DNA of 62,387 nt, taken from an uncultured virus (IMG/VR IMGVR_UViG_3300032167_000064). Lineage: Duplodnaviria > Heunggongvirae > Uroviricota > Caudoviricetes. Made by a program: the position numbers and the translations under genes. A model generated the notes under the pieces. That model was not told where the DNA came from, did no database searches, and saw only the letters and a program-made list of their open reading frames with translations. The DNA lies in the IMG/VR virus record IMGVR_UViG_3300032167_000064, positions 62,001 through 124,387 of that record; one strand, given 5' to 3'. Shown in pieces: positions 18,652-60,544 of this stretch (position 1 is its first letter; each line of letters begins with the position of its first letter).

Positions 18652-20541
18652 ATGAGTATAATGTTTGATGCAAACAAAATAGGCAGAAAGAACAAGTATA
18701 ATATTGAAACTGCTAAAATTACATTGGATATGACTACTCTCAATGTATTTTGTAGATATATTTTACAGGATGCTAGAGTCATTAGAATGGAACACCTTGT
18801 AAATATGAGAAGACTATTATCAATTGTTGATAGGTCTACTTATGAGAACGACCCAGAAAAGGTAAAGCGTTTCAATTTCATATATAAAGTATTGGAAGCA
18901 AGACTTGAACAGAATTTAACAGATATGGATTTAATTCTTCTTCATGTAAATGGAGGAATTAATTTTCAGGTTGATTTCTTAGATTATAATAATCTTGCAA
19001 TGGACAAGTCTAATATTCAATATTGTCATAAAATGGTAGAAGACTTATTAAAGTATTCATTCTTCTATAATGAAGCAGATAATTTACAAGAACTTATAAC
19101 CAGATTTAAAACATCTGATATGTCTAAGAGAGTTAGTCTTATCAAAGAAACAGAACAACTTTTAGATAGAGTAAAAAATAAGTTTAGAAAAACTCATGTA
19201 GAAGATAATGTAAATGATGTATTCTTTTCATTAGAGGATGGTACTTTTGAGTCTGCTATTACTGATACATATAATATGGTAACTAACCCATCAAGAAGAT
19301 TATACACTGGTATGCAAGGTTTCAATGAATTAATTGGTGGTGGATTTGAATCCGGTCGTGTTTATATGTTATTGGGTGTAGCAGGTGTTGGTAAATCATT
19401 AACTTTGCTTAATTTAATTAAGCAGATAAAGAAATATAATCCTATGGTTAAACCTAAGGACCCTACTAAAATTCCTTGTATTGTATTATTAACAATGGAA
19501 AATACTGTAGTGGAAACTATTACTCGTCTTTTTGATATGAGTATAGATAATTCTCATGGTATGGGTAACTATGAATTGAATGAAGTTATCTATAAATTAA
19601 GAACAGAAGGTGAGTTAACGATTAATGACTCTTCACCTTTAGATATTGTAATTAAATATAAACCTAATAGAAGTATCAGTACTGATTATCTGTATACATT
19701 ATATGAGGATTTATTAGATCAAGGAAAAGAAATGGTTTGTTTGGTTCAGGACCATATCAAACGTATTCGCTCAATCGATGGTCAGCAGGATATTCGTCTT
19801 GAATTAGGTGATATTGTAAACGAATTTAAAGTATTTGCTGCAGATAAGGATATTCCTGTAATTACAATATCTCATCTTAATCGTGAAGCAACTCGTATAT
19901 TAGAAGAAACAGCAAGAAAAGGAAATCAAGATAGTGGTAAACTTATTGGAAAATCTAATACTGGTGAATCATTATTAATGATTGATAATTTAGACTGTGG
20001 TATTACTATTGCGAGAGATTATGATAGAGATGGATTATGTTATATGACATTTCATCGTATCAAAATGAGAGATAAGGGCAGTACAAGAGATTATATTGCT
20101 CAACCATTCTTACCTGACAATCCGATTAGATTGGTAACAGATGTTGGTGGAGTTCCTCAGTTCAAAGATTCGTTGCATAATGTTGAATTGCCTGGAAGTA
20201 TTAATAACAATAGTAGAGTTAAAATGTCCGGTGCATCTGGATTTATTCAGCAGAATGATATTCTTGGTGTTATTGATACAAATGATACAGGAGACAATGC
20301 ATTCAATAACAAGGTTACTTATAATCTTGAACCTGTTGCAGCAAATTATAATAATCCTGAATATACAGCTCAGATGGAAGCATTTGATGAAGAATTATCA
20401 GAGCTTATTGTTGAGGATGCAAAGAATAGAGAAGCTATGAACATCATTATGCTGACAAACTATAATCAGTTACCGTCAGCTAATCCACCTATTTGTCCAA
20501 TCGAGTTTGTTAATGTTATTAAACCGATTGAATTTGTGTAA
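18652..20541 (+). CDS. DnaB-like replicative helicase (phiKZ-like type)
   Basis: TGMQGFNELIGGGFESGRVY, Walker A GVAGVGKS, TMEN, QDH and SHLNRE motifs. Confidence 0.85.
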   Translation: MSIMFDANKIGRKNKYNIETAKITLDMTTLNVFCRYILQDARVIRMEHLVNMRRLLSIVDRSTYENDPEKVKRFNFIYKVLEARLEQNLTDMDLILLHVNGGINFQVDFLDYNNLAMDKSNIQYCHKMVEDLLKYSFFYNEADNLQELITRFKTSDMSKRVSLIKETEQLLDRVKNKFRKTHVEDNVNDVFFSLEDGTFESAITDTYNMVTNPSRRLYTGMQGFNELIGGGFESGRVYMLLGVAGVGKSLTLLNLIKQIKKYNPMVKPKDPTKIPCIVLLTMENTVVETITRLFDMSIDNSHGMGNYELNEVIYKLRTEGELTINDSSPLDIVIKYKPNRSISTDYLYTLYEDLLDQGKEMVCLVQDHIKRIRSIDGQQDIRLELGDIVNEFKVFAADKDIPVITISHLNREATRILEETARKGNQDSGKLIGKSNTGESLLMIDNLDCGITIARDYDRDGLCYMTFHRIKMRDKGSTRDYIAQPFLPDNPIRLVTDVGGVPQFKDSLHNVELPGSINNNSRVKMSGASGFIQQNDILGVIDTNDTGDNAFNNKVTYNLEPVAANYNNPEYTAQMEAFDEELSELIVEDAKNREAMNIIMLTNYNQLPSANPPICPIEFVNVIKPIEFV

Positions 20542-20551
20542 CAGAAACAGT

Positions 20552-20582
20552 ATGCTTGTAGGTATTATCTACCTACAAGCAT
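20552..20582. terminator. Bidirectional hairpin terminator
   Basis: ATGCTTGTAGGTA / TACCTACAAGCAT. Confidence 0.75.
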
Positions 20583-22357: not shown

Positions 22358-24508
22358 ATGGAGTACAAAGAACAATTCTATTATCCTTATAAGGAATTGT
22401 GTGAAACTGGCACGCAGACTATTCACACGAAAGATTTAAACCAATCCAATATTGATAATCATTTCTACTCAATTATCAATATACTCAAAGATGGAGTAGA
22501 AAAACCTGAAGTGCAGAATATGATGATTCATGTTGTATTTGCTAACAAAGTAGATGTAGATTTAACTATATTTGATTACACTATCAACTTGATGTTCTGG
22601 AATCTCTGTACAGCAGTAGATCATCCAATTAATGATGTACATTTGGTATTCTTTGAGAATATCACCAAGAGATTTATTAAGGAATATATCGATAATATCT
22701 TTATTGATAGATATCGTAAAAAGATTCCATTCATTATGCTTAATCAGACTATCGATGCAGTAATTGGAAAATTCAGAGATCTCAGATTTATGCAAATGTA
22801 TCTTGGTAATACTTTGAATCTTGAAGATACTATTGACTTGATGAATAAGTATCCTGATTTTGCAGATACTATTCATTTCAATCCTGATGGTATTCCTATT
22901 GAAGATGTAAAAGAGAAAGGTATGGAAGCAACTGATTTACAGATTAGATATATCAAGAATTCTGATCACTGTTTAAGAGATTCATTCCGCACAGGTGAAG
23001 CAATATCACCTAAACAGTATAAAGAAGTTGCTGTTAATATTGGTTCAAAACCTGATGGTCAGGGATCAGTATTCCCTCATCCTATTCGTCATTCATTTAT
23101 GAATGGTGGTTTACAGACTCCTGAAGAGGTAGCTATTGAATCATCAGTAGGTCGTGTAGCTCAGATTTTGCAGAAAACAAACGTTGGTGAATCTGGTGCA
23201 TTTGCAAGATGTCTTGAATTAAATAATCAGGATACTATATTGCATCCTGATCCGACTTATATTTGTGATTCTCATAACTTTCAGGAAATTGTACTTGAAG
23301 ATGATACAATGCTTCGTATGTATGATATGAGATATTATAGAGATAATCCTGACGGAGTAGATAAGTTGTTATCAGCTAAAACTGCAGATAAACAGAAGAT
23401 GCTTCATAGAAAACTCTATTTCCGTTCTCCTATGACTTGTGCAAGTGCTGCTAGAGGGCATGGTATTTGTTATAAATGTTATGGCGACCTTGCATATGTA
23501 AATAGAGAAGTTAATATTGGACAGATTGCAGCTGAAGGACTATCTTCAATTTATACTCAGATCTTATTGTCAGCAAAACATCTTCTTGAATCTTTGGTTG
23601 TTAAAATGGAGTGGTCTAAAGGATTTTATGATTATTTCCAGATTACTTTTAATACCATAGCTTTGATTGAGAATAAAACCTATAGAGGTATTAAACTCAT
23701 CATTGACGAGGATATTAAGTCTGAAGAAGAATATGACGATGTAGATTATAATCACTACATCAATAGTTTCATTATCAGAAAACCTGATGGTGAAGAGTTT
23801 AAGATATCTACAACAAATACAGATAACCTGTATTTTGATTCCGATTTCTATGAATATGTAATGTCAGTTCAGCCTGAGAATAACAGTTCCGAGGAACCTT
23901 ATCATGTAGAGCTTAACTTAACAGACTTGATTGATTTTCCTTGTCTTTTTGTAGTTGAGATTAAGAATAACGAATTATCTGCGACTATGAATAAGATTGA
24001 AAAGCTTATCAATAACAAGAGTGTAATTTCTTTATATGATAGGAATTCAATTCTCAAAGAATTTATTACTACAAATATTCAGGGTAATATTAAGCTCAAT
24101 GCAGTCCACTTCGAAGTTCTTCTGATGAATCAGATCAGAGCATTTGATGATGAGCTTGAGAAACCTGATTGGACAAATCCCGGTGAAATTTGTCAGATTC
24201 TCACTTTGGATAAATCGTTGTCTAATAATCAATCTATAACTGTAAGATTGCAGAGTTCGAAAGTACAGAAGGCTTTGGCAAATCCTCAGAATAGATACAT
24301 CTGTAGACCTTCTATGACAGATATTTATTATATGGAACAGCCTCAGGAGTACTTAGACGAGGAGTTCATTTCTGACGAATATACACCTAAGTCTGATGTT
24401 GAGCAACCTATTATTGAACCTATTACTTTCTCTAACCCTAAGATTAGAGTTGGTCGTAAGGTAGAAAAGCGTAAGATTCCCAAGAAGAATTTCCGCAGAG
24501 ATTATTAA
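22358..24508 (+). CDS. Phage multisubunit RNA polymerase beta-prime C-terminal subunit (non-virion type)
   Basis: SFMNGGL, KTNVGESGAFAR (bridge helix-like), RSPMTC...GICYKCYG (Zn site), NIGQIAAE..S..TQ.LLSAKH (trigger loop), VHFEVLL. Confidence 0.9.
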   Translation: MEYKEQFYYPYKELCETGTQTIHTKDLNQSNIDNHFYSIINILKDGVEKPEVQNMMIHVVFANKVDVDLTIFDYTINLMFWNLCTAVDHPINDVHLVFFENITKRFIKEYIDNIFIDRYRKKIPFIMLNQTIDAVIGKFRDLRFMQMYLGNTLNLEDTIDLMNKYPDFADTIHFNPDGIPIEDVKEKGMEATDLQIRYIKNSDHCLRDSFRTGEAISPKQYKEVAVNIGSKPDGQGSVFPHPIRHSFMNGGLQTPEEVAIESSVGRVAQILQKTNVGESGAFARCLELNNQDTILHPDPTYICDSHNFQEIVLEDDTMLRMYDMRYYRDNPDGVDKLLSAKTADKQKMLHRKLYFRSPMTCASAARGHGICYKCYGDLAYVNREVNIGQIAAEGLSSIYTQILLSAKHLLESLVVKMEWSKGFYDYFQITFNTIALIENKTYRGIKLIIDEDIKSEEEYDDVDYNHYINSFIIRKPDGEEFKISTTNTDNLYFDSDFYEYVMSVQPENNSSEEPYHVELNLTDLIDFPCLFVVEIKNNELSATMNKIEKLINNKSVISLYDRNSILKEFITTNIQGNIKLNAVHFEVLLMNQIRAFDDELEKPDWTNPGEICQILTLDKSLSNNQSITVRLQSSKVQKALANPQNRYICRPSMTDIYYMEQPQEYLDEEFISDEYTPKSDVEQPIIEPITFSNPKIRVGRKVEKRKIPKKNFRRDY

Positions 24509-24924: not shown

Positions 24925-26553
24925 ATGGACAGAATAAAAGTTACAAATACTTCCATTATAGTCGAAAACTATACAATGGGAGAGTCCGAACAATTAGAAA
25001 AACCTTTTAGAATATATGATCCTATTACACATAAAGTATTTTATAAAGGGTTTTATTATGATGAAGAAAATAAGAGATTATATCTTCCTGCAGGTATGGA
25101 CATTTGGTATGTTCGTAAAGCATTAGGAGAAAAATATTATACAAGAATAGATTCAGAACCATTTCAAATGATTGATAATGTAATGATAAAGTTCAAGCCC
25201 AGAGATGAGGAACAAGTTGAAGCTTTAAAGTTTACCTGTAATGTAGGTGAGTATGAAGACAACAAGTATCTACATCAGCTGAGTTTGAACCTGTTTACTG
25301 GTAAAGGAAAAACATATGTATCTATTGCTACTATTTGTTTTTTCAAAATCAAGAGTATTATCATTACTGGTTCTAACTCGTTATTATCACAATGGGGAGA
25401 AGAGATTTGTAAATATACAAATTTAAAGCCAGGTGATATAGTTTCTATTAATGGATCAGAATATTGTAATATGATTCTTAATGGTTCGTCTAATAAAGCT
25501 AAGAATGGTAAAGTTTTCTTATGCAGTCATGGTACATTAAGATCGTTTGGTGATAGATATGGTTGGGACAAAGTGTCTCAATTATTCAGAGAATTAGGAA
25601 TTGGTATGAAGTTTTATGATGAAGCTCATACTAATTTTGACAATATGTTGATGATAGACTTCTTTACCAATACTTTTAAAACTTTTTATGTAACAGCTAC
25701 ACCTGGTAGAAGTAATTGGAAAGAAAATCATATATTTCAGATATCATTAAAGAATGTACCTGGTATTGATTTATTTGATGAAAATAATGATCCTCATACT
25801 AGTTATGTAGCTATTAAATGGAACTCTAATCCGACTCCACAAGCAGTATCAGCATGTAAAAATGTTTATGGATTAGATAGAAATAAATATATCAATTATG
25901 TTACTCAAAAACCTGAATTTTATGATATGATGAGAATTATAATGGATATGGTTATCAAATGTAAGGGTAGAGTTTTAATGTATATTGGTACTAATGAAGG
26001 TATATTGAGATTATATCATTGGCTTGGTAAAGAATATCCTGAGTTTCTTGGAGATATAGGTATATTTACATCTCTCTTGGATAAAACTCAAAAGCAAAAA
26101 GATAAGAAAAAGAAACTTATCATATCTACTACAAAATCTGCTGGTCTTGGAGAGCATATTGAAGGATTAAAAATGACTATAGTGTTAGCTGAACCTTTTA
26201 AATCTGAAATTATCACAAGACAGACATTAGGTAGAACACGAGATAAGAATACTTTGTATATAGAATTAGTAGATATGGGATTTAGATATTGTAGAAAATT
26301 TTATAACGATAAACTTCCTATATTTAATAAATATGCAAGTGATGTTTCTGATACTACAGTTGATTCTTATGAATTAACTAGAAGAGCAAAAATTCTTAAA
26401 GCTGAAAGAACTCATTATCAGATTTGTCCAATTGAATTAGCTGATGATAGATTTGATTTTAGTTTTATCAAAGATAAACAAACAGGACCTATTTGTCCTA
26501 TAGAATTTATCGATACCGATCCTTTATCCAGTATAAAATATCGTAAAAGATAA
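24925..26553 (+). CDS. SF2 (DEAH) helicase
   Basis: TGKGKT, DEAH, TATPGR and QTLGRTR motifs. Confidence 0.9.
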   Translation: MDRIKVTNTSIIVENYTMGESEQLEKPFRIYDPITHKVFYKGFYYDEENKRLYLPAGMDIWYVRKALGEKYYTRIDSEPFQMIDNVMIKFKPRDEEQVEALKFTCNVGEYEDNKYLHQLSLNLFTGKGKTYVSIATICFFKIKSIIITGSNSLLSQWGEEICKYTNLKPGDIVSINGSEYCNMILNGSSNKAKNGKVFLCSHGTLRSFGDRYGWDKVSQLFRELGIGMKFYDEAHTNFDNMLMIDFFTNTFKTFYVTATPGRSNWKENHIFQISLKNVPGIDLFDENNDPHTSYVAIKWNSNPTPQAVSACKNVYGLDRNKYINYVTQKPEFYDMMRIIMDMVIKCKGRVLMYIGTNEGILRLYHWLGKEYPEFLGDIGIFTSLLDKTQKQKDKKKKLIISTTKSAGLGEHIEGLKMTIVLAEPFKSEIITRQTLGRTRDKNTLYIELVDMGFRYCRKFYNDKLPIFNKYASDVSDTTVDSYELTRRAKILKAERTHYQICPIELADDRFDFSFIKDKQTGPICPIEFIDTDPLSSIKYRKR

Positions 26554-26674: not shown

Positions 26675-28111
26675 ATGATGACAGCATTAAACACATTTAA
26701 TCCACTTATAGTAGCAGCTGTTAACCCTTTCGTTATTAATAACGATTATACTATTAAGGTGGAAAACAAACCTAAAAAAGAAAAGAAAAGTTCCAAATTT
26801 AATTCTAAGGAAGCAGACAAGTTCGTTAATCAGGGACAAGTTTCTAACAGATTATACGAAGATATTTGTAAGATGGCTAAAGATAATGCATTTTTGCGTT
26901 TAGTCTTTGTTTCCAAGGGTATCGAAACAAATCAGTGGATTAGATTTGCCATTTATTATATGACAGATCCGCTTGCAACAGCTATATCATTTGCAGACGA
27001 AGAATCTAGAGAATTAGTTAATGCTATCTCTATACTGGCTGGTTTCGGTAAAGTCTATGAAAGCAATAGTGTTGCTAACATAGACGAATATGATAGTACA
27101 CAATTAAATTCTGAGTATACAGGTAGATTCTTGTTGAACAAACCTGAGCTGGTTGATTTTTTATCAACTGTACAGTTCCAGTCAGTTATGGCAGCTAGAA
27201 AATTCAGAATGAACGAAACTATTCTTGAAGGACCTGTGATGATTACTGTAGATGAAAGTGAACTTCGTTATGTGGACGAACAGAAAAAATCTATGGCTAA
27301 TCCAGCATTTGCAATTCTTGATGCTGATGATGAAGAAATTGTTCAACCTAGTTTTACTATTAATGAGTCTAATTCATTTAGTCCACTTGAGTTTAACATA
27401 AAGCCTAAAGTTATGCCTAAAAAAGGTGAAGGAATCGATGCTCATACCTATACAAGATTTGAAGCTATGATAGGAAAATATATTCCTGAAACTATTCATT
27501 ATCATTACGAATGTATTAATGGTATCTATCATCTGTTTATTACAAGACCTGATACAGGTGCAGAAGAAATGTATATTATTGATAATGGTAGTATTGTTGG
27601 TGGAAGTACAGTAGCTATTTTAGGTATGTATGTAAATTCTGAAGGCTTTGAACGATACAGATTTGTTGATGTATTAGCTCATCCGGCAATTGTTTCTAAG
27701 ATTCTTGATAGAACTATATTTAACTATCTGAGTTTTCAGGAATTAGAAGATGTACAAGGAGATTATTTGTATAATTATAGAATTTATAATAACATTGATT
27801 TCCATAATACAGATTTCTTTGATGATTTGAAACCTGAAGATAAATATGATTTTGAATCTTCGTTACTTGCAGTTATGAGTTCAATCGATTTGGCTGGATT
27901 TGGAAATGTAAGATTTAGATTTAGCTCATATGATAATCCTCATAATTTTACATTAGTTTCAGATTTTAATATGTATCGTCCGCTACCGTTTATCCAGGAT
28001 AAAATGATGCCTGAGACTTATGTTGTAGAAGGTTTAGAGATTTCCGTTGTTCCTGATCATGTATATATCAAAATGAACAATGAAATTATAAATAGCTATA
28101 GAATAGGATGA
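26675..28111 (+). CDS. Hypothetical protein
   Basis: 478-aa ORF with RBS AAGGAGG. Confidence 0.7.
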   Translation: MMTALNTFNPLIVAAVNPFVINNDYTIKVENKPKKEKKSSKFNSKEADKFVNQGQVSNRLYEDICKMAKDNAFLRLVFVSKGIETNQWIRFAIYYMTDPLATAISFADEESRELVNAISILAGFGKVYESNSVANIDEYDSTQLNSEYTGRFLLNKPELVDFLSTVQFQSVMAARKFRMNETILEGPVMITVDESELRYVDEQKKSMANPAFAILDADDEEIVQPSFTINESNSFSPLEFNIKPKVMPKKGEGIDAHTYTRFEAMIGKYIPETIHYHYECINGIYHLFITRPDTGAEEMYIIDNGSIVGGSTVAILGMYVNSEGFERYRFVDVLAHPAIVSKILDRTIFNYLSFQELEDVQGDYLYNYRIYNNIDFHNTDFFDDLKPEDKYDFESSLLAVMSSIDLAGFGNVRFRFSSYDNPHNFTLVSDFNMYRPLPFIQDKMMPETYVVEGLEISVVPDHVYIKMNNEIINSYRIG

Positions 28112-28866
28112 TAACCATGAACAACAATAGCAATATTGATTTTACAGAATATGATAGAGTACAAGATATATTAATGTATCTAACTGACAAAATCACGCTT
28201 AGCTTTGTTGTTGCATTGTCTAAAAAGAATTTAGGAGGACAAAGATCCTTCTTTCATTACGAGACTCAGTACACTTCTGATTCTTATGGTACTCAATTAA
28301 GATCTATTAAAAGAAATATGTCTTACTATTTCTTGATTTCTAATAAAGATATCTTTGGATCTGGAATTGTACTGAGACCTCAAGATGTAGAAATATTGAT
28401 AATGCTCATAGAACAAAGAGTAATACCTTGGTTCTTTGGAACTCAAGAACAACATGCATTTCATATGGTAGATAATAAACTAGTATTAAAAGAATTTACT
28501 CCGGTAATATATACACAATCTGATACAAAGTTTATAGGATTTGAACCTATAGTTTATCATTATGAAAATTCAGATCAGTTTGCAGAGGGAGTTAACTTGT
28601 TATTTACACAAGGTGAATCCTGTCCATTAACTGTAGATAAGTTTATGGGTCTGTTTAATGTGCTGAAATCTGACATGTATAATATAGCTTGTCAGTTATG
28701 TACTTATGCTAAGGTTCCACCTTATGGTGTGAATGTATTTAAACCTGTTGGTTTGGGATCTTCTCCCAATCAACAACGAAATGATACTGGTTGGAGCAAC
28801 CAAAACAATTATAAAGGTTTTGGTGCTAATTCCTTCTTGGAAAATGCCAAGAAGAAAGGAGATTAG
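28108..28866 (+). CDS. Hypothetical protein
   Basis: 252-aa ORF coupled to the upstream gene. Confidence 0.7.
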   Translation: MITMNNNSNIDFTEYDRVQDILMYLTDKITLSFVVALSKKNLGGQRSFFHYETQYTSDSYGTQLRSIKRNMSYYFLISNKDIFGSGIVLRPQDVEILIMLIEQRVIPWFFGTQEQHAFHMVDNKLVLKEFTPVIYTQSDTKFIGFEPIVYHYENSDQFAEGVNLLFTQGESCPLTVDKFMGLFNVLKSDMYNIACQLCTYAKVPPYGVNVFKPVGLGSSPNQQRNDTGWSNQNNYKGFGANSFLENAKKKGD

Positions 28867-32574: not shown

Positions 32575-33156
32575 ATGTTTGATGAATTTAAGAAAAAGAT
32601 AATTAATCCTATAGAATTTGTTAAACCCGGTGAATCCTATGCTATTACTCCAATCGAAAGATTAGAGCAGGTTAACGGAATTACAAGTTTTGCCATCCTT
32701 AAGACTACTGAGGGTGGTAAGTATATGAGAGGTAATATGTTATATTATCATCTCAATGGTGTTAGTATCTATACAGATCCTAATAACGTTATTTTTGTTG
32801 ATACAGTAAACAATATGATGTGGGTTAGAGAGTATGAAAAAGTATTAAAAGAAATCGAACCTGATAATCCTGAAGAAAAACAATATATTATGCTCTATAC
32901 GGATTTATGCTACGAAGATGATGATCAGGAATATCCTTTTAGGTGGGAAGCGGTAACTGGAAGATCAAGTGCATATGATGCTATCAAAATTAATGCTCCT
33001 GTAATTGATATTGATAAATCACTTGTATTGGTTGAAACAGTAGGTTTTAAAGACGCTTTAACTGTAAGGCAATTTATTGATTATCTGCAAAATTCTGGCA
33101 TAATCGAAGATGATACTTTCAGTACAGAAGATTATACAGGCTCAGATTATATTTAA
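32575..33156 (+). CDS. Hypothetical protein (N-terminal PIEF motif)
   Basis: RBS AAGGAG; early motif upstream. Confidence 0.7.
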   Translation: MFDEFKKKIINPIEFVKPGESYAITPIERLEQVNGITSFAILKTTEGGKYMRGNMLYYHLNGVSIYTDPNNVIFVDTVNNMMWVREYEKVLKEIEPDNPEEKQYIMLYTDLCYEDDDQEYPFRWEAVTGRSSAYDAIKINAPVIDIDKSLVLVETVGFKDALTVRQFIDYLQNSGIIEDDTFSTEDYTGSDYI

Positions 33157-43940: not shown

Positions 43941-46166
43941 ATGGCAGGATTAGGATTTTCAGATAAGATAGCAGAGAATACTAAAAATCTCCAATCTATG
44001 GAACATATGTTGGGAAAAGGTCTTATGCAACCTTTTAATAACACAAATGCAGGATCAAGAAAGATAATGTTCTCAGTTCATAAAGAACATGTCTTTCCTC
44101 TTATGAGTGCTGAAAAAGCAATAATAGAAACTGGATATGAGATCAGATATGGTGATTATTCAAGTTCTATTACAAGAGCTGATACAGATTATATTGTAGT
44201 AGCAAAGATAAGCAAGTTTTCTTTTGCACCAAATCATCATTATTGGTTGATTATTAGAGATACTAAATCTAATAAAATCGATGTTGTAGAAAGAATCTCA
44301 TATCATTATGTAACAGAATCTTATGGATATCTCTATAATAATGAATATTTGGATTCTTTATCTATAGGAGATTATATACCTAACGGTCAAGTAGTTCAGA
44401 AATCTCTTGCATTCGATGAATATAATAATAGAGCCGATGGAGTAAACTTCAATGTTGCTTATATGGCTCTTGATGATAATATGGAAGACTCAATTGTTTG
44501 TTCAGAAGCAGCCCAAAGAAAATTAGTATCTCCACTTGTAAAACCTGTAGAGATTACTATTAATGACAATGATATTCCGGTAAATCTTTATGGAAATGAT
44601 AAGGTTTACAAAATCATTCCTGATATTGGAGAAGAAATTGTAGATGCAAATCTTATTGCTCTCCGTAAAGAGAAGAAAGAAGAATCATATTTTACTCAGT
44701 CTATTAATAACTTGAGCAAGATTATGATTTCTGATGATAAAAAGAGAGTTCATGGTAGAGTTATCGATGTTAACGTATATTGTAACAATCCTGAGATTCT
44801 TGATTCTCATTATTATGCTCAAATTAAGATGTATTATAATGAGCTTCACAGATATGCGAGAGAAATTGTACATGCAGTAACACCTCTTGTATCTGCTGGT
44901 TGTGATATGACTTATGAACTTGAGAAATTATTTGCCAATTGCAAACGTGTTATGAACAATGATATGTATATTGATAAGAGACCTTTCTCTAATATTATTC
45001 TTGAAGTGGATGTACTTGAAGAAAATATGATTGAAGCTGGAGACAAGATGTCTAACAGATATGGTGGTAAAGGCGTTATTTCTAAGATTCTTCCTATGGA
45101 TCAGATGCCTAGATTTAAGAATGCTAGAGGTGAATATGAATATCTCGATGTAATCTTCAATTCATCTACTATGATCAACCGCGAAAATACAGGACAGAAC
45201 TTTGAATTATCATTGAACCATATTTCTGCAGAAATTATCAATTATATAGTTGGTAATAACTTGAGCTTGGAAGAAGCTTATGGTTTGATTTATAAGTTTG
45301 TATCAATGTGTGCTCCAGAGCAGGCTGCTTATATGGAAGAAAGAAGAAGATCTATGTCAAGAGACGAACTTATCTTCTATGTAGAATCAATTATCAATTC
45401 TGGTACTATTCATCTTAGTATCAAACCTATTTCTGAATCTATGGATATCGATAGACTCAGAGATATTTATGCAGCATTTCCATTTGTGCAGCAAAATCTT
45501 GTAGAGGTTCCTATTGAAGGTTCTGATGGAAGTATCAGATATGTACCTGCAAGAAGAAGAATGGTAATTGGTAAGCAGTATATTTACAGATTAAAACAGT
45601 TTGCTGAAGAGAAGTTTTCTGCAACTTCATTGTCAGCAACTAATATCAGAAATGAAAATACAAAATCTAGAGTTAAGAAAGACTTTAGAGAATTGTATCC
45701 TAATACACCGATTAGATTTGGTAATATGGAAACCAATAATATGGCTCATATCGGTGTAGAAGCTCTTATCTCTAATATGATGATTCATAGTTTATCTCCT
45801 CAGGGTAGAAGATTAGTAGAGCAGATGTATACTGGAGATCCGTTTAAGATTGATATTAAACTTAATAGTGATTCTAAGAATAGATCTGCAGAAATTGCTA
45901 ATACTTATTTGAAGGCTATTGGTAGACGACTTAGATTTATCAAGAGAAAGAAGAACTTTTCACAAATTACTATTTCTCCTATTAGCTTTGACAGAGATCC
46001 TTATCAAAGACCAATTTCATTTGTTCCTAAAGATCAAAGAGCAGGATTTGATTATGTGAAAGATTATGAAGAGAGACAGAAGTATGAAGAATTGAAGAAG
46101 AAAGCAGGTGCTTTTTCTCCGATTGAATTTGAAGGTATAGATACAAGGAGAGTTAAGGAGGATTAA
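43941..46166 (+). CDS. Phage multisubunit RNA polymerase beta C-terminal subunit (non-virion type)
   Basis: PFNNTNAGSRKIM, NMEDS, GDKMSNRYGGKGVIS, NREN.GQ, YIYRLKQ and PIRFGNME motifs. Confidence 0.9.
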   Translation: MAGLGFSDKIAENTKNLQSMEHMLGKGLMQPFNNTNAGSRKIMFSVHKEHVFPLMSAEKAIIETGYEIRYGDYSSSITRADTDYIVVAKISKFSFAPNHHYWLIIRDTKSNKIDVVERISYHYVTESYGYLYNNEYLDSLSIGDYIPNGQVVQKSLAFDEYNNRADGVNFNVAYMALDDNMEDSIVCSEAAQRKLVSPLVKPVEITINDNDIPVNLYGNDKVYKIIPDIGEEIVDANLIALRKEKKEESYFTQSINNLSKIMISDDKKRVHGRVIDVNVYCNNPEILDSHYYAQIKMYYNELHRYAREIVHAVTPLVSAGCDMTYELEKLFANCKRVMNNDMYIDKRPFSNIILEVDVLEENMIEAGDKMSNRYGGKGVISKILPMDQMPRFKNARGEYEYLDVIFNSSTMINRENTGQNFELSLNHISAEIINYIVGNNLSLEEAYGLIYKFVSMCAPEQAAYMEERRRSMSRDELIFYVESIINSGTIHLSIKPISESMDIDRLRDIYAAFPFVQQNLVEVPIEGSDGSIRYVPARRRMVIGKQYIYRLKQFAEEKFSATSLSATNIRNENTKSRVKKDFRELYPNTPIRFGNMETNNMAHIGVEALISNMMIHSLSPQGRRLVEQMYTGDPFKIDIKLNSDSKNRSAEIANTYLKAIGRRLRFIKRKKNFSQITISPISFDRDPYQRPISFVPKDQRAGFDYVKDYEERQKYEELKKKAGAFSPIEFEGIDTRRVKED

Positions 46167-46871: not shown

Positions 46872-49289
46872 ATGAACAGTTTTGATTATTCGAAAATTCA
46901 AGATATATTGAATCATCTGTTAGCGAGAGATTTAAATATCATGACATCTGACAATATTAAATTTGTCAATGATTGTGCTATAAATTTATATCAGATTCCT
47001 TATATGAAATATACTCCATCTGATATTGATGGATTAAAGAGTATATTAAGAATCTGTAATATCTTGTATAATAGGACTGACCTGAGAGTTCTTCCTATAG
47101 AAGATGGATTTTATGATTTGCTCTTAGAATTATATAAGAGATTTGATCCTAATTTTCAGGTTGGATCTGATGTTATAGATTTCGAGTCTGGTACAGATTT
47201 TACAACCGATATCGTTAAAAAAGAAATAATATGTCCAATTGAATTTGTGCCACCAAGAAAGAAAAAAGGTGATGATGATCTTAGAGATCATATATATAAT
47301 GAAATTATTATGAAAGGAAAATCTACTCTGAATAAGAGAGATTTTTATACTTCTCCAATTGAATTCGAAGCAGCTTATATTCCTAAGAGACTTCATAATA
47401 TTGAACACAATCATCCAACTCTTGTTGGTACTTTAGATAAAGCAAAATTTGTATTAAATCAGGATGCTATAAATGCTGGTGTATTTAATGATCCGAATGT
47501 AAGTATACTAGAAAGAGATTTCTTTCAGGATCATCTATCAAAAGGTATCTATGATAAAAATAGAGTAATTCATATTGTTTGTGAAATAAAGTATGATGGA
47601 ATTTCTGTAGAAGGAGATTGTAATTTTACTCTTCAGTCTGCTAGATCAAGAGGAGATACAGGAATGGGAGCAGCAAGTGATATGACTCCTATATTGAAGG
47701 ATTATATATTCAAAAATGCTGCTTGTATGATAGGCGAAGAACCTGTTGGAGTTAAGTTTGAAGCGATTATGACTAAATCTGATTTATATCGTTTCAATAT
47801 AGCAAGAGGTAAGAATTATGCAAACTGTAGAACAGCTATAGTTGGTCTCTTTGGTGCTAGTGATGCATATTTATATAGAGATTATATTACATTGGTTCCT
47901 CTTGCTTTGGACTTAGAACAATTTAATGCAACTCATCCTAATATTGCTATTACAGATAGATTATCTGAAATTGCTTTCATCAACAGTGTATTCACTTCTA
48001 ATGGTGAACCTTTAAGATATTGTGTATTTAGCGGAACTGTTGGCGAAGTATTGTATTTGATAAAAATGTTTGTTGATGAGGCTAAGTATGCTAGAGATTT
48101 CTTAAACTTCATGTATGATGGAGTTGTAGTTAGTATTCTTGATGAAGATATTAGAATGACACTTGGTAGAAAGAATTTCATTAACAAATTCTCTATGGCT
48201 GTTAAATTTGATCCACTTGAAAAACAAACTACTTTTAGAGGATATACTTACGAAGTAGGTCAGCATGGAGATATTACACCTATGATTCATTATGATCCAG
48301 TAGAATTTAATGGAACTATTCATACAAAATCAACTGGATCGTCTTTGAATAGATTCAAAGATCTTGGTCTTAGACCTGGAGAAATTATCAATGTAACTTA
48401 TGTAAACGATGTAATGCCTTATGTAAGTAAATTGGATTGTGTACAAAACAGAGAAAACACCAATCCACCAATTCCATTCATTTCAGAGTGCCCTGTATGT
48501 GGTTCCAAACTTATGGAATCTACTTCTGGTAAATCTGCATATTGTCCTAATCATGAATGTCCTGCAAGAACAGTGCAGAGAATGACAAATATGTTTGCTA
48601 AAATGAATATTAAGGGATTTGCTGCAGCTTCATTCACAGCTTTAGGTAAATCTAACTTGAGAGATTTGTGCTCTATGTCTAAATATGAATTAGTAAACAT
48701 ATTGGGAGAAGCAGACGGTAATAATATGGCAGAAGTTATTTGTAATCTTTTGACAGTAAAACAAAGAGATTATGTTATTATGGGAGCTTTAGGTTTTACT
48801 TCTATTGCTAGAAAGAAATGGGAAGATATTTTGAGACATGTAACATTGAAAGAATTACATGATACTTATCAAAATCTTCTTGATGCTGGCTGTTCTATGG
48901 ATGAGATATTTGGAAAGTTTTCCTATTATCTTAGATCTAAGATTCCTAATCTTGGAGAGATTACAGAATATACTATTGTCAAAGAATTTCCATATTTCTT
49001 TGCAGATATTAAATTCATTGTAGAGAATATACCTTTAGAAAATTCTTATGGTATCGATAATAGTGGTAGAATTCAAGTAAGATTCACAGGATTTAGAAAT
49101 TCACAACTAGTAGAACAGTTAATTACTGCGGGATATGACGCAGGAGATGGTTCAATTACAAAGAATACTAATATTCTATTAATTCCTTATACCGGTTTTA
49201 CTAGCAGTAAAGTAACGAAAGCTGCAAAGATTCCTAATATTATGATAATGACTGAACAGGAGTTCAGAGAGAGATTTAATATCTATTAA
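46872..49289 (+). CDS. ligA: NAD-dependent DNA ligase
   Basis: EIKYDG adenylation motif, SRGD, DGVVV, AVKF, OB fold, CPVC...C....C zinc finger and C-terminal BRCT (FTGFR...SSK..KA). Confidence 0.9.
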   Translation: MNSFDYSKIQDILNHLLARDLNIMTSDNIKFVNDCAINLYQIPYMKYTPSDIDGLKSILRICNILYNRTDLRVLPIEDGFYDLLLELYKRFDPNFQVGSDVIDFESGTDFTTDIVKKEIICPIEFVPPRKKKGDDDLRDHIYNEIIMKGKSTLNKRDFYTSPIEFEAAYIPKRLHNIEHNHPTLVGTLDKAKFVLNQDAINAGVFNDPNVSILERDFFQDHLSKGIYDKNRVIHIVCEIKYDGISVEGDCNFTLQSARSRGDTGMGAASDMTPILKDYIFKNAACMIGEEPVGVKFEAIMTKSDLYRFNIARGKNYANCRTAIVGLFGASDAYLYRDYITLVPLALDLEQFNATHPNIAITDRLSEIAFINSVFTSNGEPLRYCVFSGTVGEVLYLIKMFVDEAKYARDFLNFMYDGVVVSILDEDIRMTLGRKNFINKFSMAVKFDPLEKQTTFRGYTYEVGQHGDITPMIHYDPVEFNGTIHTKSTGSSLNRFKDLGLRPGEIINVTYVNDVMPYVSKLDCVQNRENTNPPIPFISECPVCGSKLMESTSGKSAYCPNHECPARTVQRMTNMFAKMNIKGFAAASFTALGKSNLRDLCSMSKYELVNILGEADGNNMAEVICNLLTVKQRDYVIMGALGFTSIARKKWEDILRHVTLKELHDTYQNLLDAGCSMDEIFGKFSYYLRSKIPNLGEITEYTIVKEFPYFFADIKFIVENIPLENSYGIDNSGRIQVRFTGFRNSQLVEQLITAGYDAGDGSITKNTNILLIPYTGFTSSKVTKAAKIPNIMIMTEQEFRERFNIY

Positions 49290-50978: not shown

Positions 50979-52790
50979 ATGTTTATAGACCAGGCTCAGT
51001 TTATGAGACAATTCAATGAAACTCACAGAGAAGAATTCAATCCTGAGTTATTTGAAAGAAATAATGAAGAGATTGTTGAAGCTATAAAGTCTGTTGTTAT
51101 GTCATGTCAAAGAGACAAGTATTATACATTAAAACTTTTAAGCTTCAAAGCTATCTATAAATATGAAGAGATTTATAACACTCTTAGAGATCATGAAGCT
51201 AAACGTAAGAGAAAGAACTCTAAGATTGATAATATCTATGATTTTATCAATATTAGAGATACAGATATGATTCTGATTAAGTTAGAATGGTTAGTAAGAC
51301 ACAATGGTGTTGAAAGAATTGAAGAAGATAATAAGACTATGGAAGTGGTAAACCCTGAACAGATTTTGGAAGTATTAATTGCAGTTCCTAGATTCGTTAG
51401 AAAATACTATTTCCGCTTGTCAGGAAACTTTTATACAACCATCTTCCAGATTGTTGACGGTTCTACTTATAACAACTCTACTGCTAGCCAGAGTAAGGTT
51501 GATACTGTAACTATGAAGACAATGTTCATGCCTATCCGTATCTTTAGAGGTTTCAATACAATGGTAGATAAAAATACTAATAAAGCTGTTAATGCTATTG
51601 AGTATCAATCTATTATCTTTAATAATGTAGTGAATGTATTGTATTATATCCTTGCAGCTTATGGTATGTATGGTGCTATGAATTTCATGGAGATCAATTG
51701 TATTTCAATTACTCCTCATCAGTTTAATCATCCGGATTATTATTCATTCTGCAAAAATGATTCAATCTATATTAATTGTCCTAAGGTTTGTTTTGACAAT
51801 GATGCAGTTGTGCAGAGTTTTGTTGCAACAATTTATGATGGAATTTCGAAGGATGTAACTGATCCTAATATGTTGTTTGATCAGAGATATTGGTTAAGAA
51901 ATCTGGGTATTATTTTCAAACAGGCTACTGTAGAAAAAGGTTTATTTGTATTGGATTCTGTTGATGGAATCTATGATAATATTACCTTAAACGATTTACA
52001 TCTTCCTATGAGAGATAAAGAGAATATCTATTGTGTACTTAGATGGCTCATTAGAGAATTTTCTAATCTTCGTTCAAAAGAAAATGTAGATGTAACTACA
52101 AAACGTATCCGTATTGCTGACTATATTGCAGCTGTATATGCTACAAAGTTAAACAAAGGTATTCATCGTATTTCAGATATGGGTAGCAAGGTTACTTTAA
52201 AGAAAGTTATTCAGGCTATATATACACAACCTATGTATGTAATGAATAATATCTCTACAATGAGCAACTTGGTATCATATAGAGATTTGGTTAACGATTT
52301 GGATTCACTTACAGCTTTAAAATATACCTATAAAGGTATTTCAGGTCTTGGTGAGGATGGAGCTAGTATTCAGCCTATATATCGTTATGTAGATCCATCT
52401 CATGTTGGTATTCTTGATCTGGATGCTTCGTCTGCATCAGACCCGGGTATGTCTGGTATGATTTGTCCTATGACAAAATTATATGGTAATGATAGTTCGT
52501 TCTCTAATTATATGGAACCTAATGCTTGGAGAGAGAATTACAAACCATTTGCCGATGCTTATATGAATGGAGCCACTTCGCCTATTGTATTTGATAGACC
52601 ACCAGAACAGCCTGACTATATGGCTCAAAGAGAACAGATTGTTCAGGAAGAACTCGATATCAACAGAATTATTTGTCCTATTCAGAATATTAAGGATCCG
52701 AATATTCTGTATACTTGTTCACAGGCTATTATCGATCAGGATAATAGAAATGAACCGAAGTCTATCTTTACAATTAAAGATGAAAACTAA
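50979..52790 (+). CDS. Phage multisubunit RNA polymerase beta N-terminal subunit (non-virion type)
   Basis: IAVPRF...FRLSGNFY...QIVD, KRIR, and RYVDPSHVGILDLDASSASDPGMSG (equivalent of beta R.VHPSH.G.ID...T.EG...G). Confidence 0.85.
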   Translation: MFIDQAQFMRQFNETHREEFNPELFERNNEEIVEAIKSVVMSCQRDKYYTLKLLSFKAIYKYEEIYNTLRDHEAKRKRKNSKIDNIYDFINIRDTDMILIKLEWLVRHNGVERIEEDNKTMEVVNPEQILEVLIAVPRFVRKYYFRLSGNFYTTIFQIVDGSTYNNSTASQSKVDTVTMKTMFMPIRIFRGFNTMVDKNTNKAVNAIEYQSIIFNNVVNVLYYILAAYGMYGAMNFMEINCISITPHQFNHPDYYSFCKNDSIYINCPKVCFDNDAVVQSFVATIYDGISKDVTDPNMLFDQRYWLRNLGIIFKQATVEKGLFVLDSVDGIYDNITLNDLHLPMRDKENIYCVLRWLIREFSNLRSKENVDVTTKRIRIADYIAAVYATKLNKGIHRISDMGSKVTLKKVIQAIYTQPMYVMNNISTMSNLVSYRDLVNDLDSLTALKYTYKGISGLGEDGASIQPIYRYVDPSHVGILDLDASSASDPGMSGMICPMTKLYGNDSSFSNYMEPNAWRENYKPFADAYMNGATSPIVFDRPPEQPDYMAQREQIVQEELDINRIICPIQNIKDPNILYTCSQAIIDQDNRNEPKSIFTIKDEN

Positions 52791-53859: not shown

Positions 53860-54189
53860 ATGTTAGGAATTGATATGAATATAAAATTGGATGTAAAGAG
53901 AGTTACCTCACCTATATATTTTCAACACAGAAATGAATGTGTAAGGTGCGGAGCTAAAGGTAAACTCGTTTTTATAGATAGATTTGGAAGAGAATGTACA
54001 AGAGAAGTTAATGCGTTAGAGCATATTAAATGTACAAACTGTGGTAAGTTATATTCTATTCTTTGGGAACCTAAAGAAGGGACTGATAAGTTAATGCCTT
54101 CTCCGATTGATACAAGTATTTCAGTTGATTTTATGAATCTGGTTAGATTTAATAAACTTAAAAAAGATGGAGAGAATATTCTTTGTTAA
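53860..54189 (+). CDS. Zinc-ribbon protein
   Basis: CVRC...CTNC; RBS AGGAGG. Confidence 0.7.
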   Translation: MLGIDMNIKLDVKRVTSPIYFQHRNECVRCGAKGKLVFIDRFGRECTREVNALEHIKCTNCGKLYSILWEPKEGTDKLMPSPIDTSISVDFMNLVRFNKLKKDGENILC

Positions 54190-56915: not shown

Positions 56916-56963
56916 AACCACTATATATTAATCTAAAACTAGATTAGAAAAGGAGGTTTTGTT

Positions 56964-58401: not shown

Positions 58402-58555
58402 GTATTTGTCCTCCTTTTCTTTAAAATAGTAGCAAATATATTACGTTTCATTCAATATGATATATTAACAAAATGTGCAGGTATTGGAAATCTATCGATA
58501 GAAAAACATCAGATTAATCAATAATATTAATAAATATAGAAAGGATTTAAGCATT

Positions 58556-60544
58556 ATGGGAATGATACCTGAGTTAGAGTGTAGATATCCAGAAGGTTCA
58601 GATATTACAGTTATGAATACTTACTATCGTTATCCTGAATTTGAAGAAGGTAAAAAAGTTTGTGATGATCAAATATTTATCATCTATAAGGATAATAAAA
58701 CAAAAAAGAAAGACTTTCTGGTTATTACAAATCCTGATTATACTTTCTATAAGATTAAGGATGGAATTGAAGTTCCACCTTATAGTCAGCTCTTCATTGA
58801 AAGAGAAAAAGTTGAACCTATAACAGTTCCATTTCATAAATTGGAATTAAACTTAGCAAAGGCTACAGGAATGGAAGAGTTCTATAAACAGAACTTAATG
58901 AATAGAAATAAAAGGGCTAATCAGGCTCTTCACAGTGACCCATCATTATTCTATTCAGATGCAAATATTGAAGATCATTATAGATTTAAGTTTGCTAATA
59001 CATATAGCAACGAAATTTATAAGATTACTAAGGGATTCTTCGATATAGAAGTAGATGGTAAATGGGCAAAAGGTGATTTTGTTGAAATGGGAGAATGTGC
59101 TATCAATTGTGTATCTTATTATGATGAAGGTACAGATACAGTATATACTTTTGTTTTAAGAGACGAAAGAAATCCTCAAATTCAACAACTTGAAGATTCA
59201 TTTAAATCAGGTAAATTTGGTTGGAATGAAATTCATAAATTTGTAGTTGATGCGGTTGGTGGTATAAAAGCTGCTACAAAATATGGACTTATGAAGACTA
59301 AATTTTGTCCAATGTTTTATGATAGTGAAATTCAACTCATTGCAGATTTGTTTGAAACGATGCATAGAACATGTCCGGACTTTATTGAGGGTTGGAACTC
59401 CAGTGGATTCGACTTGGAATATATTATAGCCAGAGTAATAGCTCTTGGATATAATCCTGAAGATATATTATGTGATCAGAGATGGAAAGATAAGGTCGTT
59501 AAGAATTTCGTTGATCATCAACATCAAAACGAATTGGCAGAACGTGGTGATTATACTTTTATTTCCGGATTACCTGTATTTCTTGATCAGATGATTCAAT
59601 ATGCTTCAAGAAGAAAATCTAAGATTGGTTCATATAAATCATTCAAATTAGATGATATTGGTTTGAAAGAAGCTAATGTAAGAAAGTTGGATTATCATCA
59701 TATAACTGATTCTGTTACAGAATTACCTTGGTTAGATTTCAAGACATTCTTTTTATATAACATCATGGATGTTATTGTTCAGAAATGTATTGAAGCTCAA
59801 ACTAATGACTTAGAATATATCTTCTCTAAGTGTGTAGTTAATAATACAGTATATAAGAAAGGTCATAGACAGACAGTATATCTTATCAATCGTATGGCTG
59901 CTGACTGGTATAAGATGGGTTATATTATTGGTAATAACTGTAACAAAGAGAACCCTAAACCTCCAAAATATCTTGGAGCATTGGTAGGTGATCCTACAAA
60001 GACCAATGAATATTCAAAGATGATAATCGATGGTAGAGCAATTTGGGTATGTGAGAATTTGCTTGATTACGATTTTAAATCATTATATCCAAGCCTTATG
60101 GGTGAATATAATATTGCACCTAATACTCAGATTGGTAAGATTATCATTGATGAGAAGGTATATAAAGATGAAAACTATTATCATATCGAGGAAGAGAAAT
60201 ATTCTCGTGGAGGCGAGTTTATAGAAAATCTTGTTACTGATAATATGATTGAATTCTGTACAAGATGGTTCCATCTTGGAAATATTCAAGAAGTATTGTT
60301 TGATATGGACGAATATTATGAGAAAAAGTTTGGTCTTGGAAGATATAGTAATCTTATCTCAGCAGGATTTGGTAATATAGATTCAGATAAACCATTTGCT
60401 TATAGTCCTATTATTCCTACATCTTATAAGCCAGAATCTCCAATTGAATTTAATGCTCCTAAAGCTGAAAGTCCAATTATATTCCTTAATCAGAGACCGG
60501 ATAATATGACTTATGAAAAATTACTTGAAAGTAAGAAAGGTTGA
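58556..60544 (+). CDS. Family B DNA polymerase, N-terminal subunit (3'-5' exonuclease plus motif A) of a split enzyme
   Basis: FFDIEVD (ExoI), GWNSSGFDLEYI (ExoII), YNIMDV (ExoIII), DYDFKSLYPS (motif A); motifs B (K...NS.YG) and C (DTDS) are absent before the stop. Confidence 0.85.
   Translation: MGMIPELECRYPEGSDITVMNTYYRYPEFEEGKKVCDDQIFIIYKDNKTKKKDFLVITNPDYTFYKIKDGIEVPPYSQLFIEREKVEPITVPFHKLELNLAKATGMEEFYKQNLMNRNKRANQALHSDPSLFYSDANIEDHYRFKFANTYSNEIYKITKGFFDIEVDGKWAKGDFVEMGECAINCVSYYDEGTDTVYTFVLRDERNPQIQQLEDSFKSGKFGWNEIHKFVVDAVGGIKAATKYGLMKTKFCPMFYDSEIQLIADLFETMHRTCPDFIEGWNSSGFDLEYIIARVIALGYNPEDILCDQRWKDKVVKNFVDHQHQNELAERGDYTFISGLPVFLDQMIQYASRRKSKIGSYKSFKLDDIGLKEANVRKLDYHHITDSVTELPWLDFKTFFLYNIMDVIVQKCIEAQTNDLEYIFSKCVVNNTVYKKGHRQTVYLINRMAADWYKMGYIIGNNCNKENPKPPKYLGALVGDPTKTNEYSKMIIDGRAIWVCENLLDYDFKSLYPSLMGEYNIAPNTQIGKIIIDEKVYKDENYYHIEEEKYSRGGEFIENLVTDNMIEFCTRWFHLGNIQEVLFDMDEYYEKKFGLGRYSNLISAGFGNIDSDKPFAYSPIIPTSYKPESPIEFNAPKAESPIIFLNQRPDNMTYEKLLESKKG

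Follow-up and report, generated by a model that had tools for sequence, protein, structure and literature searches.

Why do enzymes as unrelated as a DnaB helicase, a DNA ligase and the subunits of an RNA polymerase carry the same short peptide? The question is raised by a stretch of 62,387 nucleotides (the window), positions 62,001 to 124,387 of the IMG/VR record IMGVR_UViG_3300032167_000064, whose source is an AR9-related jumbo phage. A reading made from the sequence alone had taken the peptide for a docking signal addressed to one hub. A shared docking signal at the protein level is well supported by conservation in orthologues, portability between protein ends, absence from virion proteins and joint respelling in related phages; for the hub there is a candidate only. 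Our best explanation, to which we assign a probability of about 0.45, is a docking system like that of T4 gp45 but with a spelling that changes by lineage, its hub being a clamp-fold protein encoded behind the polymerase gene. This gene, the lineage-private respelling and a family-specific protein kinase had been overlooked in the sequence-only reading.

A peptide tag on replication and transcription enzymes

The identities of the tag-carrying genes agree with Pfam and PHROGs. The genes and tags concerned are the following:

18652..20541, plus strand: divergent DnaB helicase, 629 aa (PF20307, divDNAB), with two tags on a C-terminal tail; tail tags also in relatives
20491..20538, plus strand: the DnaB tags ICPIEF (20491-20508) and KPIEFV (20521-20538), from the translation
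22358..24508, plus strand: non-virion RNAP beta-prime C-terminal subunit (phrog_3015), tail tag EPITF 24416-24430
24925..26553, plus strand: SF2 helicase (Pfam/PHROGs, translation), tail tags ICPIEL (26422-26439) and ICPIEF (26491-26508)
26675..28111, plus strand: 478-aa protein, internal SPLEF 27380-27394; a weaker case, with HPIFF nearby in one orthologue
28108..28866, plus strand: 252-aa family-core protein, no tag here; N-terminal tag in genomes G002 and G023
32575..33156, plus strand: 193-aa protein, N-terminal INPIEF 32602-32619; the orthologues of G018, G023 and G025 bear the tags of their own genomes
43941..46166, plus strand: non-virion RNAP beta C-terminal subunit (PF00562, phrog_3295; 120 homologs), three tail tags at 45972-45989, 46008-46022 and 46113-46130
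46872..49289, plus strand: NAD-dependent DNA ligase (Pfam, translation), N-terminal insertion with ICPIEF (47229-47246) and TSPIEF (47349-47366)
50979..52790, plus strand: non-virion RNAP beta N-terminal subunit (phrog_2943), tail with TSPIVF (52575-52592) and CPIQN (52674-52688)
53860..54189, plus strand: Zn-ribbon protein, N-terminal TSPIYF 53905-53922; the G015 orthologue bears the tag of G015
58556..60544, plus strand: N-terminal (exonuclease) subunit of a split family-B DNA polymerase (PF03104, phrog_3011), tail with ESPIEF (60434-60451) and ESPIIF (60467-60484)

All 15 intervals originally listed as tags encode the expected peptides, on the plus strand and in frame within the named genes; two further copies, RPISF and CPIQN, had been left without coordinates and lie at 46008-46022 and 52674-52688. 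In the 140 ORFs of the window (genome G000), the pattern [CSTNKER]P[IL].F occurs 17 times, against 3.07 +/- 1.7 in per-protein shuffles, none of which (0/300) reached this count. PIEF, seen 10 times where 0.31 copies are expected, is far ahead of every other 4-mer. Enrichment persists in a proteome of 259 ORFs that adds a further part of the identical record G001 (12 vs 0.65 for [CS]PI.F and 10 vs 0.57 for PIEF). By contrast, enrichment is slight for the looser pattern P[IVL].[FYL] (55 vs 41, with 5/300 shuffles as high), so that less trust can be placed in an isolated loose match, for example SPLEF in the 478-aa protein. As had been claimed, the copies differ in their codons (among the 15, Pro is CCA 7, CCT 6 and CCG 2 times, Phe TTT 12 and TTC 3 times), and PIEF is never found off-frame in 376,939 positions; together these two facts rule out a DNA repeat as the origin of the tag.

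The placement is equally selective. Of the strict copies, 15/18 are no more than 70 residues away from a protein end, compared with 44% of all residues. P-I-x-F is present in 9 of the 22 DNA-acting proteins and in none of the 29 virion proteins, and it is kept in 120 RNA-polymerase homologs, where the anchors are conserved and the third position is free; both tests bear out what the sequence-only reading would predict. Tandem tags are spaced 9-11 residues apart. The tag is also portable, since RusA carries it at the N-terminus in G001 and at the C-terminus in G002.

The carriers in six genomes comprise DnaB, the SF2 helicase, the ligase, both polymerase subunits and three RNAP subunits, with sporadic gains on a sigma-like subunit, SbcD and RusA. 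In the same six genomes gyrase A/B, RecA, Dda, primase, SbcC, PhuZ, GroEL, capsid and the virion RNAP pieces are untagged except for isolated internal matches. Low-complexity proteins are found among the carriers; RNase H has no more than a loose copy in the present phage, and strict copies number 0 in four other genomes.

The P-I-x-F tag is thus real and not a matter of chance. Although the pattern was picked after the sequence had been seen, the probability that it reflects chance, composition or a spreading DNA repeat is negligible, given the rank of PIEF, its absence off-frame, the mixed codons, the conserved anchors around a free third position and the independent tags of other genomes.

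Spellings private to each lineage

The same seven enzymes have tails in 23 related genomes, yet the tag is private to each lineage: PIxF, GMxY, FMxR, LFxKI, IAxRV and others, KKIWNK and KPFT being among the further spellings. The tails of the polymerase N-subunit were compared across 128 loci. None of 2000 permutations reached the lineage-private signal. One spelling changes across unrelated proteins, lineage by lineage, i.e., respelling is concerted. All spellings are hydrophobic and beta-prone and often come in 2-6 tandem copies about 10 residues apart. The proteome-wide tests of spelling leave out genome G020. In the G003 group the xLF spelling can be seen in tails, without proteome-wide enrichment of LF.[FY] (20 vs 23), and the G014 tag was seen once against 1.15 expected in the first 120 kb of its 213 kb.

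The closest cultured relatives are the Bacillus phages of the AR9/PBS1 group, with about 31% identity in RNAP beta-C. AR9 has the same split polymerase, RNAP subunits, ligase and DnaB, but its versions end without the tails and are shorter: beta-C has 665 aa against 741 here, and beta-N 496 against 603. There is no tag enrichment in its 285 ORFs, nor any match to the kinase or to PhuZ.

A clamp-fold protein behind the polymerase gene

A clamp-like hub had been one of the initial proposals. The best fit to the carrier list is a predicted clamp-fold protein encoded in the window, 8 bases behind the polymerase gene:

60552..61184, plus strand: 210-aa stand-alone protein with a predicted sliding-clamp fold, candidate tag reader (predicted structure, synteny)

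The AF2 model, built from 144 sequences, has a pLDDT of 95.4. Its Foldseek PDB rows are all beta clamp or PCNA (best E 8.9e-4), and the first 38 VIA rows contain nothing but clamps and viral processivity factors (beta clamp, PCNA, gp45, UL42/UL44), after which Z drops to 4.4. The highest-ranking VIA structure is that of gp45 in complex with a peptide from ligase (Z 8.9, rmsd 4.1, 174 residues aligned of the 230 in gp45); UL42/UL44/BMRF1 and PCNA share the fold at Z 5.8-8.7. On this model, the product of 60552-61184 would have the two-domain clamp fold of the sliding clamp/processivity-factor superfamily. The further matches of the model include chimallivirus 'RNase H' proteins, about 490-560 aa long. 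By sequence, the family gave no useful match in searches against solved structures, PHROGs, Pfam, NCBIfam and Atlas, and none in deposited phage records.

When loci were scanned with the polymerase as anchor, the clamp gene lay directly behind the polymerase gene in 65/71 distinct loci. Lys or Arg is conserved at sequence positions 132, 164, 188-190, 193 and 200, and K132, K188 and K190, which may form a basic patch facing DNA, are present in more than 90% of the family. Identity between the clamps of G000 and G002 is only 31% despite near-identical tags, no greater than between lineages whose tags differ (20-30%), which speaks against the clamp as reader. When 259 ORFs, from a genome that may be incomplete, were scanned for Walker-A motifs, the scan found DnaB, Dda, RecA, SbcC and two virion proteins but no RFC-like AAA+ clamp loader; the sole PHROG clamp-loader row is a secondary match on a PhoH-like protein. 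According to a 2021 survey, a classical sliding clamp is lacking in this group of jumbo phages (PMC7824862).

The paradigm for such docking is the T4/RB69 gp45 system (gp43, gp55, gp33 and ligase), in which a single short hydrophobic peptide likewise recurs on the tails of polymerase, ligase and late-transcription proteins. The available text of one paper has gp55 and gp33 bind gp45 via a C-terminal LDFL motif, and PCNA organise polymerase, FEN1 and ligase (PMC9690074). In addition to the gp45-ligase peptide match, a clamp-fold gene beside the polymerase gene is common to both systems. However, the consensus here is PIxF instead of LDFL, the tags are in tandem, respelled per lineage and carried by a phage-encoded multisubunit RNAP and by DnaB, no clamp loader was found by the scan, and docking is predicted. 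PIxF matches neither the PIP-box nor the QL[SD]LF consensus, both of which are stable across large clades whereas the tags change between related phages; only the xLF spellings (G003/G011/G019/G027) resemble the PIP box, the beta-clamp motif or LDFL. With regard to the loader, a preprint available in part reports that UL42 functions without one (10.64898/2026.09.30.755723).

A second comparison is provided by Rhc (RNase H-clamp; phiKZ gp155, Goslar gp190), a clamp-derived domain of chimalliviruses, which have the same split family-B polymerase and two RNAPs as the present phage. According to the accessible portions of two preprints, Rhc has a stimulating effect on the split polymerase, and late transcription depends on this domain (10.64898/2026.09.30.755723; 10.64898/2026.10.01.755736); PhiKZ Rhc is monomeric and contacts the polymerase through an extensive folded interface, and that portion of the first preprint describes no peptide motif. 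These October 2026 preprints, as far as available, present only a fused, monomeric clamp domain and mention no shared peptide tag, whereas the clamp here is a stand-alone protein of 210 aa and RNase H a separate 237-aa gene (L020:8394-9104). In AR9, gp128, two genes behind the polymerase N-subunit, does not match the clamp profile, so that an AR9 clamp orthologue is not established. The neighbouring gp130 ('RNase H') was considered as part of a split Rhc and rejected: the start of its sequence resembles a DEDD-type exonuclease, and AR9 encodes its RNase HI as gp240.

In the proposed scheme, [S/C]-P-[I/V/L/F]-x-F would serve as a short linear docking motif, carried on the flexible tails and insertions of replication and late-transcription enzymes and read by a single phage-encoded hub, most likely the stand-alone clamp-fold protein. 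This protein would act as a DNA-bound processivity factor and tool belt to which polymerase subunits, ligase, helicases, resolvase and the non-virion RNA polymerase would be tethered via their tags, and the tethering would link late transcription to replication in the manner of T4 gp45. The tag would drift jointly with its reader, and therefore each lineage would have its own spelling. Like clamp-binding motifs, the tags do sit at the flexible termini of polymerase, ligase, nucleases and late-transcription factors; the 9-11 residue spacing of tandem tags is probably too short to join the subunits of a ring. DnaB, the linker of a protein kinase and the low-complexity proteins would be odd clients for a clamp. 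The Walker-A scan without a loader, the folded interface of phiKZ Rhc and the loose copy on RNase H also weigh against the scheme. Clamp-fold proteins are also present in phages without known tags, so that possession of one is not distinctive; some 20 further family-core genes without an AR9 match are alternative reader candidates.

Other candidate readers

The tag could instead be an address label for a chimallin-free replication/transcription compartment, be it a scaffold, a shell or a condensate, with a family-specific core protein as its reader and the private spellings parting self from co-infecting phages. We consider this unlikely. In its favour, a PhuZ tubulin is encoded, about 20 early core genes without an AR9 match are common to the tagged genomes, and several core proteins, some of them tagged, have Q/G/P/Y-rich low-complexity regions. 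Chimallivirus import (PicA/Imp1) likewise selects DNA-acting proteins in a species-specific manner; however, in the available part of that work, recognition is by a folded surface, with no conserved linear signal found (PMC11087766). Moreover, gyrase, RecA, Dda, primase and SbcC would need entry and yet are untagged. The genome search suggested earlier did yield a clamp-fold gene, but in single-sequence searches, which may miss remote homologs, PhiKZ chimallin (gp54) matches 0/21 family records, and neither it nor gp69 (PicA) nor gp70 has a phmmer match; the idea of an import receptor for a chimallin nucleus gains no support from them. The statement that no linear signal of this kind has been described in jumbo phages agrees with a literature search largely confined to papers outside subscription.

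It is improbable that the tag is a substrate-docking motif for a family-specific protein kinase (L020:11762-14116, outside the window) phosphorylating replication and transcription enzymes. The kinase domain folds like RIO2/PknB and is encoded in 14/14 near-complete family genomes, without a match in AR9 or in 50,697 deposited phage records; its gene neighbours bear tags, and many copies here start with S-P. Yet the Ser position is often taken by Cys, Lys, Glu, Asn or Arg, and a phospho-acceptor is missing from most other spellings, so that the tag itself is not a phosphosite, which is ruled out as a general explanation. The catalytic domain is well conserved (29-58%) across lineages with differing tags. 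The kinase itself looks like a client, because close homologs carry the tag, which is in the linker in 75/120 of them.

There is a slim chance that no separate reader exists and that the tags are short beta-strands pairing mutually, one spelling per phage being needed for co-assembly of a factory. Concerted respelling would be a natural consequence, and the hydrophobic, beta-prone, tandem character of the spellings agrees with it. On the other hand, many carriers have a single copy, and proline- or lysine-rich spellings such as PIEF, KKIWNK and KPFT would be poor self-pairing strands.

Terminal hydrophobic peptides are also typical of signals read by SSB, chaperonins or protease adaptors, and the phage encodes a GroEL-like protein. 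A reader of this sort, i.e., a single-strand binding protein, the phage chaperonin or a host protease adaptor recognizing a degron, is nevertheless quite improbable. The SSB-like hub once proposed fits poorly because Dda, RecA and primase, its typical partners, are never tagged; AR9 has GroEL without tag enrichment, and a host reader is not expected to change specificity so fully between related phages.

If the clamp is the reader, a stand-alone clamp-fold protein together with a proteome-wide tag would suggest in concrete terms how the replisome of this family is built and how replication is coupled to transcription. The surprising part is the concerted respelling, in which many unrelated genes switch code jointly; the clamp motifs known so far stay constant throughout entire domains of life. 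Tentatively, and with more doubt than belief, one may see here a private peptide barcode for the replication and late-transcription factory across a whole family of uncultured jumbo phages, in which one reader and 15-25 clients co-change their code through at least 16 distinct spellings, keeping the enzymes of co-infecting phages apart or gating a chimallin-independent compartment, and thereby acting as a speciation barrier. The tag system would offer a natural case of a hub co-evolving with many clients, the tag alone may mark unknown genes as DNA-acting, and the lineage spellings provide sets of possibly orthogonal peptide-protein pairs.

The PIxF tag and its carriers

Tails and insertions of replication and transcription enzymes in the source phage had been read as sharing a short PIxF-type peptide (ICPIEF, SPIEF and similar), and all the intervals claimed for it translate in frame, on the + strand, into the peptides described. 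Two copies that had been named without positions can now be placed:

46008-46022, copy in the tail of RNAP beta-C
52674-52688, copy in the tail of RNAP beta-N

Pfam and PHROGs back the host identities (a divergent DnaB, an SF2 helicase, an NAD ligase and three non-virion RNAP subunits) and identify the tagged polymerase as the subunit of a split family-B enzyme that bears the exonuclease. Among cultured phages, AR9/PBS1 and Staphylococcus jumbo phages come closest, with ~30 % identity. The source record (G000) is a 124-kb fragment, which a second record (G001), identical where compared, extends; together they yield a pooled list of 259 ORFs (custom script, longest non-overlapping ORFs, at least 60 aa). 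Outside the window the motif occurs in RusA, a conserved unknown protein (phrog_12252) and several unknown proteins, as a loose copy in RNase H, and in the second polymerase subunit, where it sits on an internal loop.

The pattern [CSTNKER]P[IL].F is found 17 times in G000 vs 3.07 +/- 1.7 in shuffled controls (0/300 shuffles), PIEF is the top 4-mer of all in that record, and in the pooled list [CS]PI.F occurs 12 times vs 0.65 expected while PIEF is absent from 376,939 off-frame positions. The expected bias towards DNA-acting proteins is also borne out, with categories hand-assigned from family matches and patterns picked post hoc: PI.F is present in 9/22 of them vs 0/29 virion, virion-RNAP or lysis proteins (p 1.6e-4). 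With the stricter [CS]P[IVL].F the figures are 6/22 vs 1/29 (p 0.03), and with a broader one 6 vs 2 proteins (p 0.06). Codon use across the copies is mixed, as had been noted, and 15 of the 18 strict copies are found close to one end of their protein.

In five relatives (50–75 % identity) the motif is retained at matching positions of tails that otherwise align poorly. Across 120 RNAP beta-C homologs, the last copy starts with S (91 %) and P (98 %), continues with I/V/L/F and one unconstrained residue, and closes with F (96 %), with variable residues before it; the first two copies sit in better conserved sequence and might pack against the enzyme as well. The RusA tag is N-terminal in G001 and C-terminal in the relative G002. 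AR9 enzymes stop short of the tails, and a search for motif enrichment in AR9 showed none.

Two phrog_12252 paralogs have, by eye, an HNH-like residue pattern. One bears its own genome's tag in three genomes (C-terminally in the source phage and G018, N-terminally in G015), the second never.

L021:9128-9946, phrog_12252 paralog
L020:17722-18492, phrog_12252 paralog

Tail-fibre-like segments (ATSATS repeats) recur on both strands, and the G001 record starts and ends inside one of them. Together with a tyrosine recombinase gene, the repeats and record ends suggest that the fibre region is invertible or shuffled.

window 399-4761, tail-fibre-like repeats
G000 46152-47511 and 56617-57109, tail-fibre-like repeats
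L019:7418-8494, tyrosine recombinase

Lineage-private spellings

Scans anchored on the polymerase yielded 128 loci. Their polymerase tails commonly carry two or three short repeats spaced ~10 residues apart, and the spelling of these repeats differs between lineages. When the matching regions of seven enzymes were taken from 23 genomes, most genomes repeated one tag across unrelated proteins.

Table. Tags shared by the seven enzymes, and proteome-wide counts (observed/expected) of patterns taken from the tails themselves
Source phage (G000): PI.F, 7/7 proteins; [CS]PI.F, 12/0.6
G015: LF.K, 7/7; LF.KI, 14/1.7
G018: FM.R, 7/7; FM.R, 39/3.4
G023: GM.Y, 7/7; GM.Y, 31/2.9
G025: IA.R, 5/7; IA.R[VI], 15/1.8
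G012: AFS, 6/7
G013: IRF, 6/7
G026: Y.PF, 6/6

A weaker signal (3 proteins) is seen in G003, G005, G019, G024 and G027. Within genomes, the best 5-mer similarity between different proteins averages 20.4 vs 17.3 +/- 0.14 after shuffling of genome labels (0/2000 permutations; 16 genomes, one per spelling, 7 close relatives excluded), and 20.2 vs 17.4 in all 23. From unrelated proteins alone, 66/108 tails are assigned to their own genome in the 16-genome set and 70/152 in the full set. Proteome-wide counts form a diagonal across genomes; off-diagonal counts are mostly near expectation, the largest being LF.KI (5/1.4) and [CS]PI.F (3/0.6) in G002, PIEF in G003 (3/0.5) and GM.Y in G018 (11/5.6). 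These patterns also detect proteins beyond the seven classes, among them SbcD, a sigma-like subunit, a 193-aa protein and a Zn-ribbon protein. Since the tag changes jointly across unrelated genes, we infer a shared binding partner or self-association.

The gene for the polymerase N-subunit is split at about the same point in G002 (L047) and G005 (L051), and in G005 an HNH endonuclease gene lies inside the interruption; both cases suggest introns. A primase-family gene (phrog_19847) adjoins that of the sigma-like subunit; group 1 jumbo phages are described as lacking a primase.

L024:14735-15796, primase-family gene

Candidate readers of the tag

Because the list of carriers looked like clamp clients, the unannotated gene behind the polymerase was folded.

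60552-61184, +, 210-aa clamp-fold candidate

The AF2 model is confident (pLDDT 95.4, pTM 0.90) and gives a predicted clamp fold. In Foldseek the matches are beta clamps and PCNA, at modest scores (best E 8.9e-4, TM ~0.4–0.47); in VIA, T4 gp45 comes first (Z 8.9, rmsd 4.1, 174 aligned), and 38 clamps or viral processivity factors precede the first unrelated fold. Among viral models it matches uncharacterised myovirus proteins (E to 3e-9) and 'RNase H' proteins of chimalliviruses. The family comprises 334 clusters at 50 % identity, and its gene immediately follows the polymerase gene in 65/71 distinct loci with room downstream (66/95 with default filters). In AR9 the corresponding position, flanked by the polymerase N-subunit cluster and a virion gene, is taken by an unannotated 238-aa protein that the clamp profile does not match.

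L091:6726-7442, AR9 gp128

The division into carriers and non-carriers in six genomes agrees better with a clamp than with an SSB or a general importer. Against a clamp as reader stand the failure to find a clamp-loader candidate, the close spacing of tandem tags, the tags on DnaB, a kinase linker and low-complexity proteins, and a clamp divergence unrelated to tag similarity. The clamp-fold protein is nevertheless the most likely candidate, at a probability of roughly 0.45.

Two beta-rich family-core proteins with similar G/N-rich ends (N-x-F-L) are possible single-strand DNA-binding proteins.

window 28108-28866, beta-rich protein
L024:8540-9331, beta-rich protein

That the tag addresses proteins to a compartment is rather unlikely. 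A single-sequence search detected neither chimallin nor PicA; a PhuZ-like tubulin is present and conserved in the family, with no AR9 match. Possible condensate scaffolds are three proteins that contain long Q/G/P/M/Y-rich stretches of low complexity; the two in the window are family-core and lack an AR9 match.

L002:14738-15841 (G000 31738-32844), PhuZ-like tubulin
window 34325-35242, +, low-complexity protein
window 57280-58401, -, low-complexity protein
L020:10378-11766, low-complexity protein

Docking to a protein kinase is improbable. The kinase has an N-terminal RIO2/PknB-like fold, a Cys-rich extension and a long acidic tail; its gene occurs in 14/14 near-complete family genomes and its linker is tagged in 75/120 close homologs, but the strict pattern was not found in the kinases of G002, G015, G018 and G025. 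It has no match in AR9 or deposited phages, and two mutually similar unknown genes (224 and 180 aa) follow it. By PSI-BLAST, ~20 family-core early genes are without an AR9 match and are further candidates.

L020:11762-14116 (G001, beyond the window), kinase

Self-association of the tags, which would also accommodate joint respelling, is equally improbable.

The PIP-box and QL[SD]LF are consensus sequences of clamp-binding motifs. The tags work in the manner of the T4 clamp-motif system, of which they are at most putative members. Group 1 jumbo phages are described, in PMC7824862, as lacking a classical clamp. A literature search found no description of such tags, term searches giving no mention of a motif, AR9 or Bacillus in 10.64898/2026.10.01.755736 and no match in PMC12625630. 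Lineage-private docking tags are a real, family-wide system.
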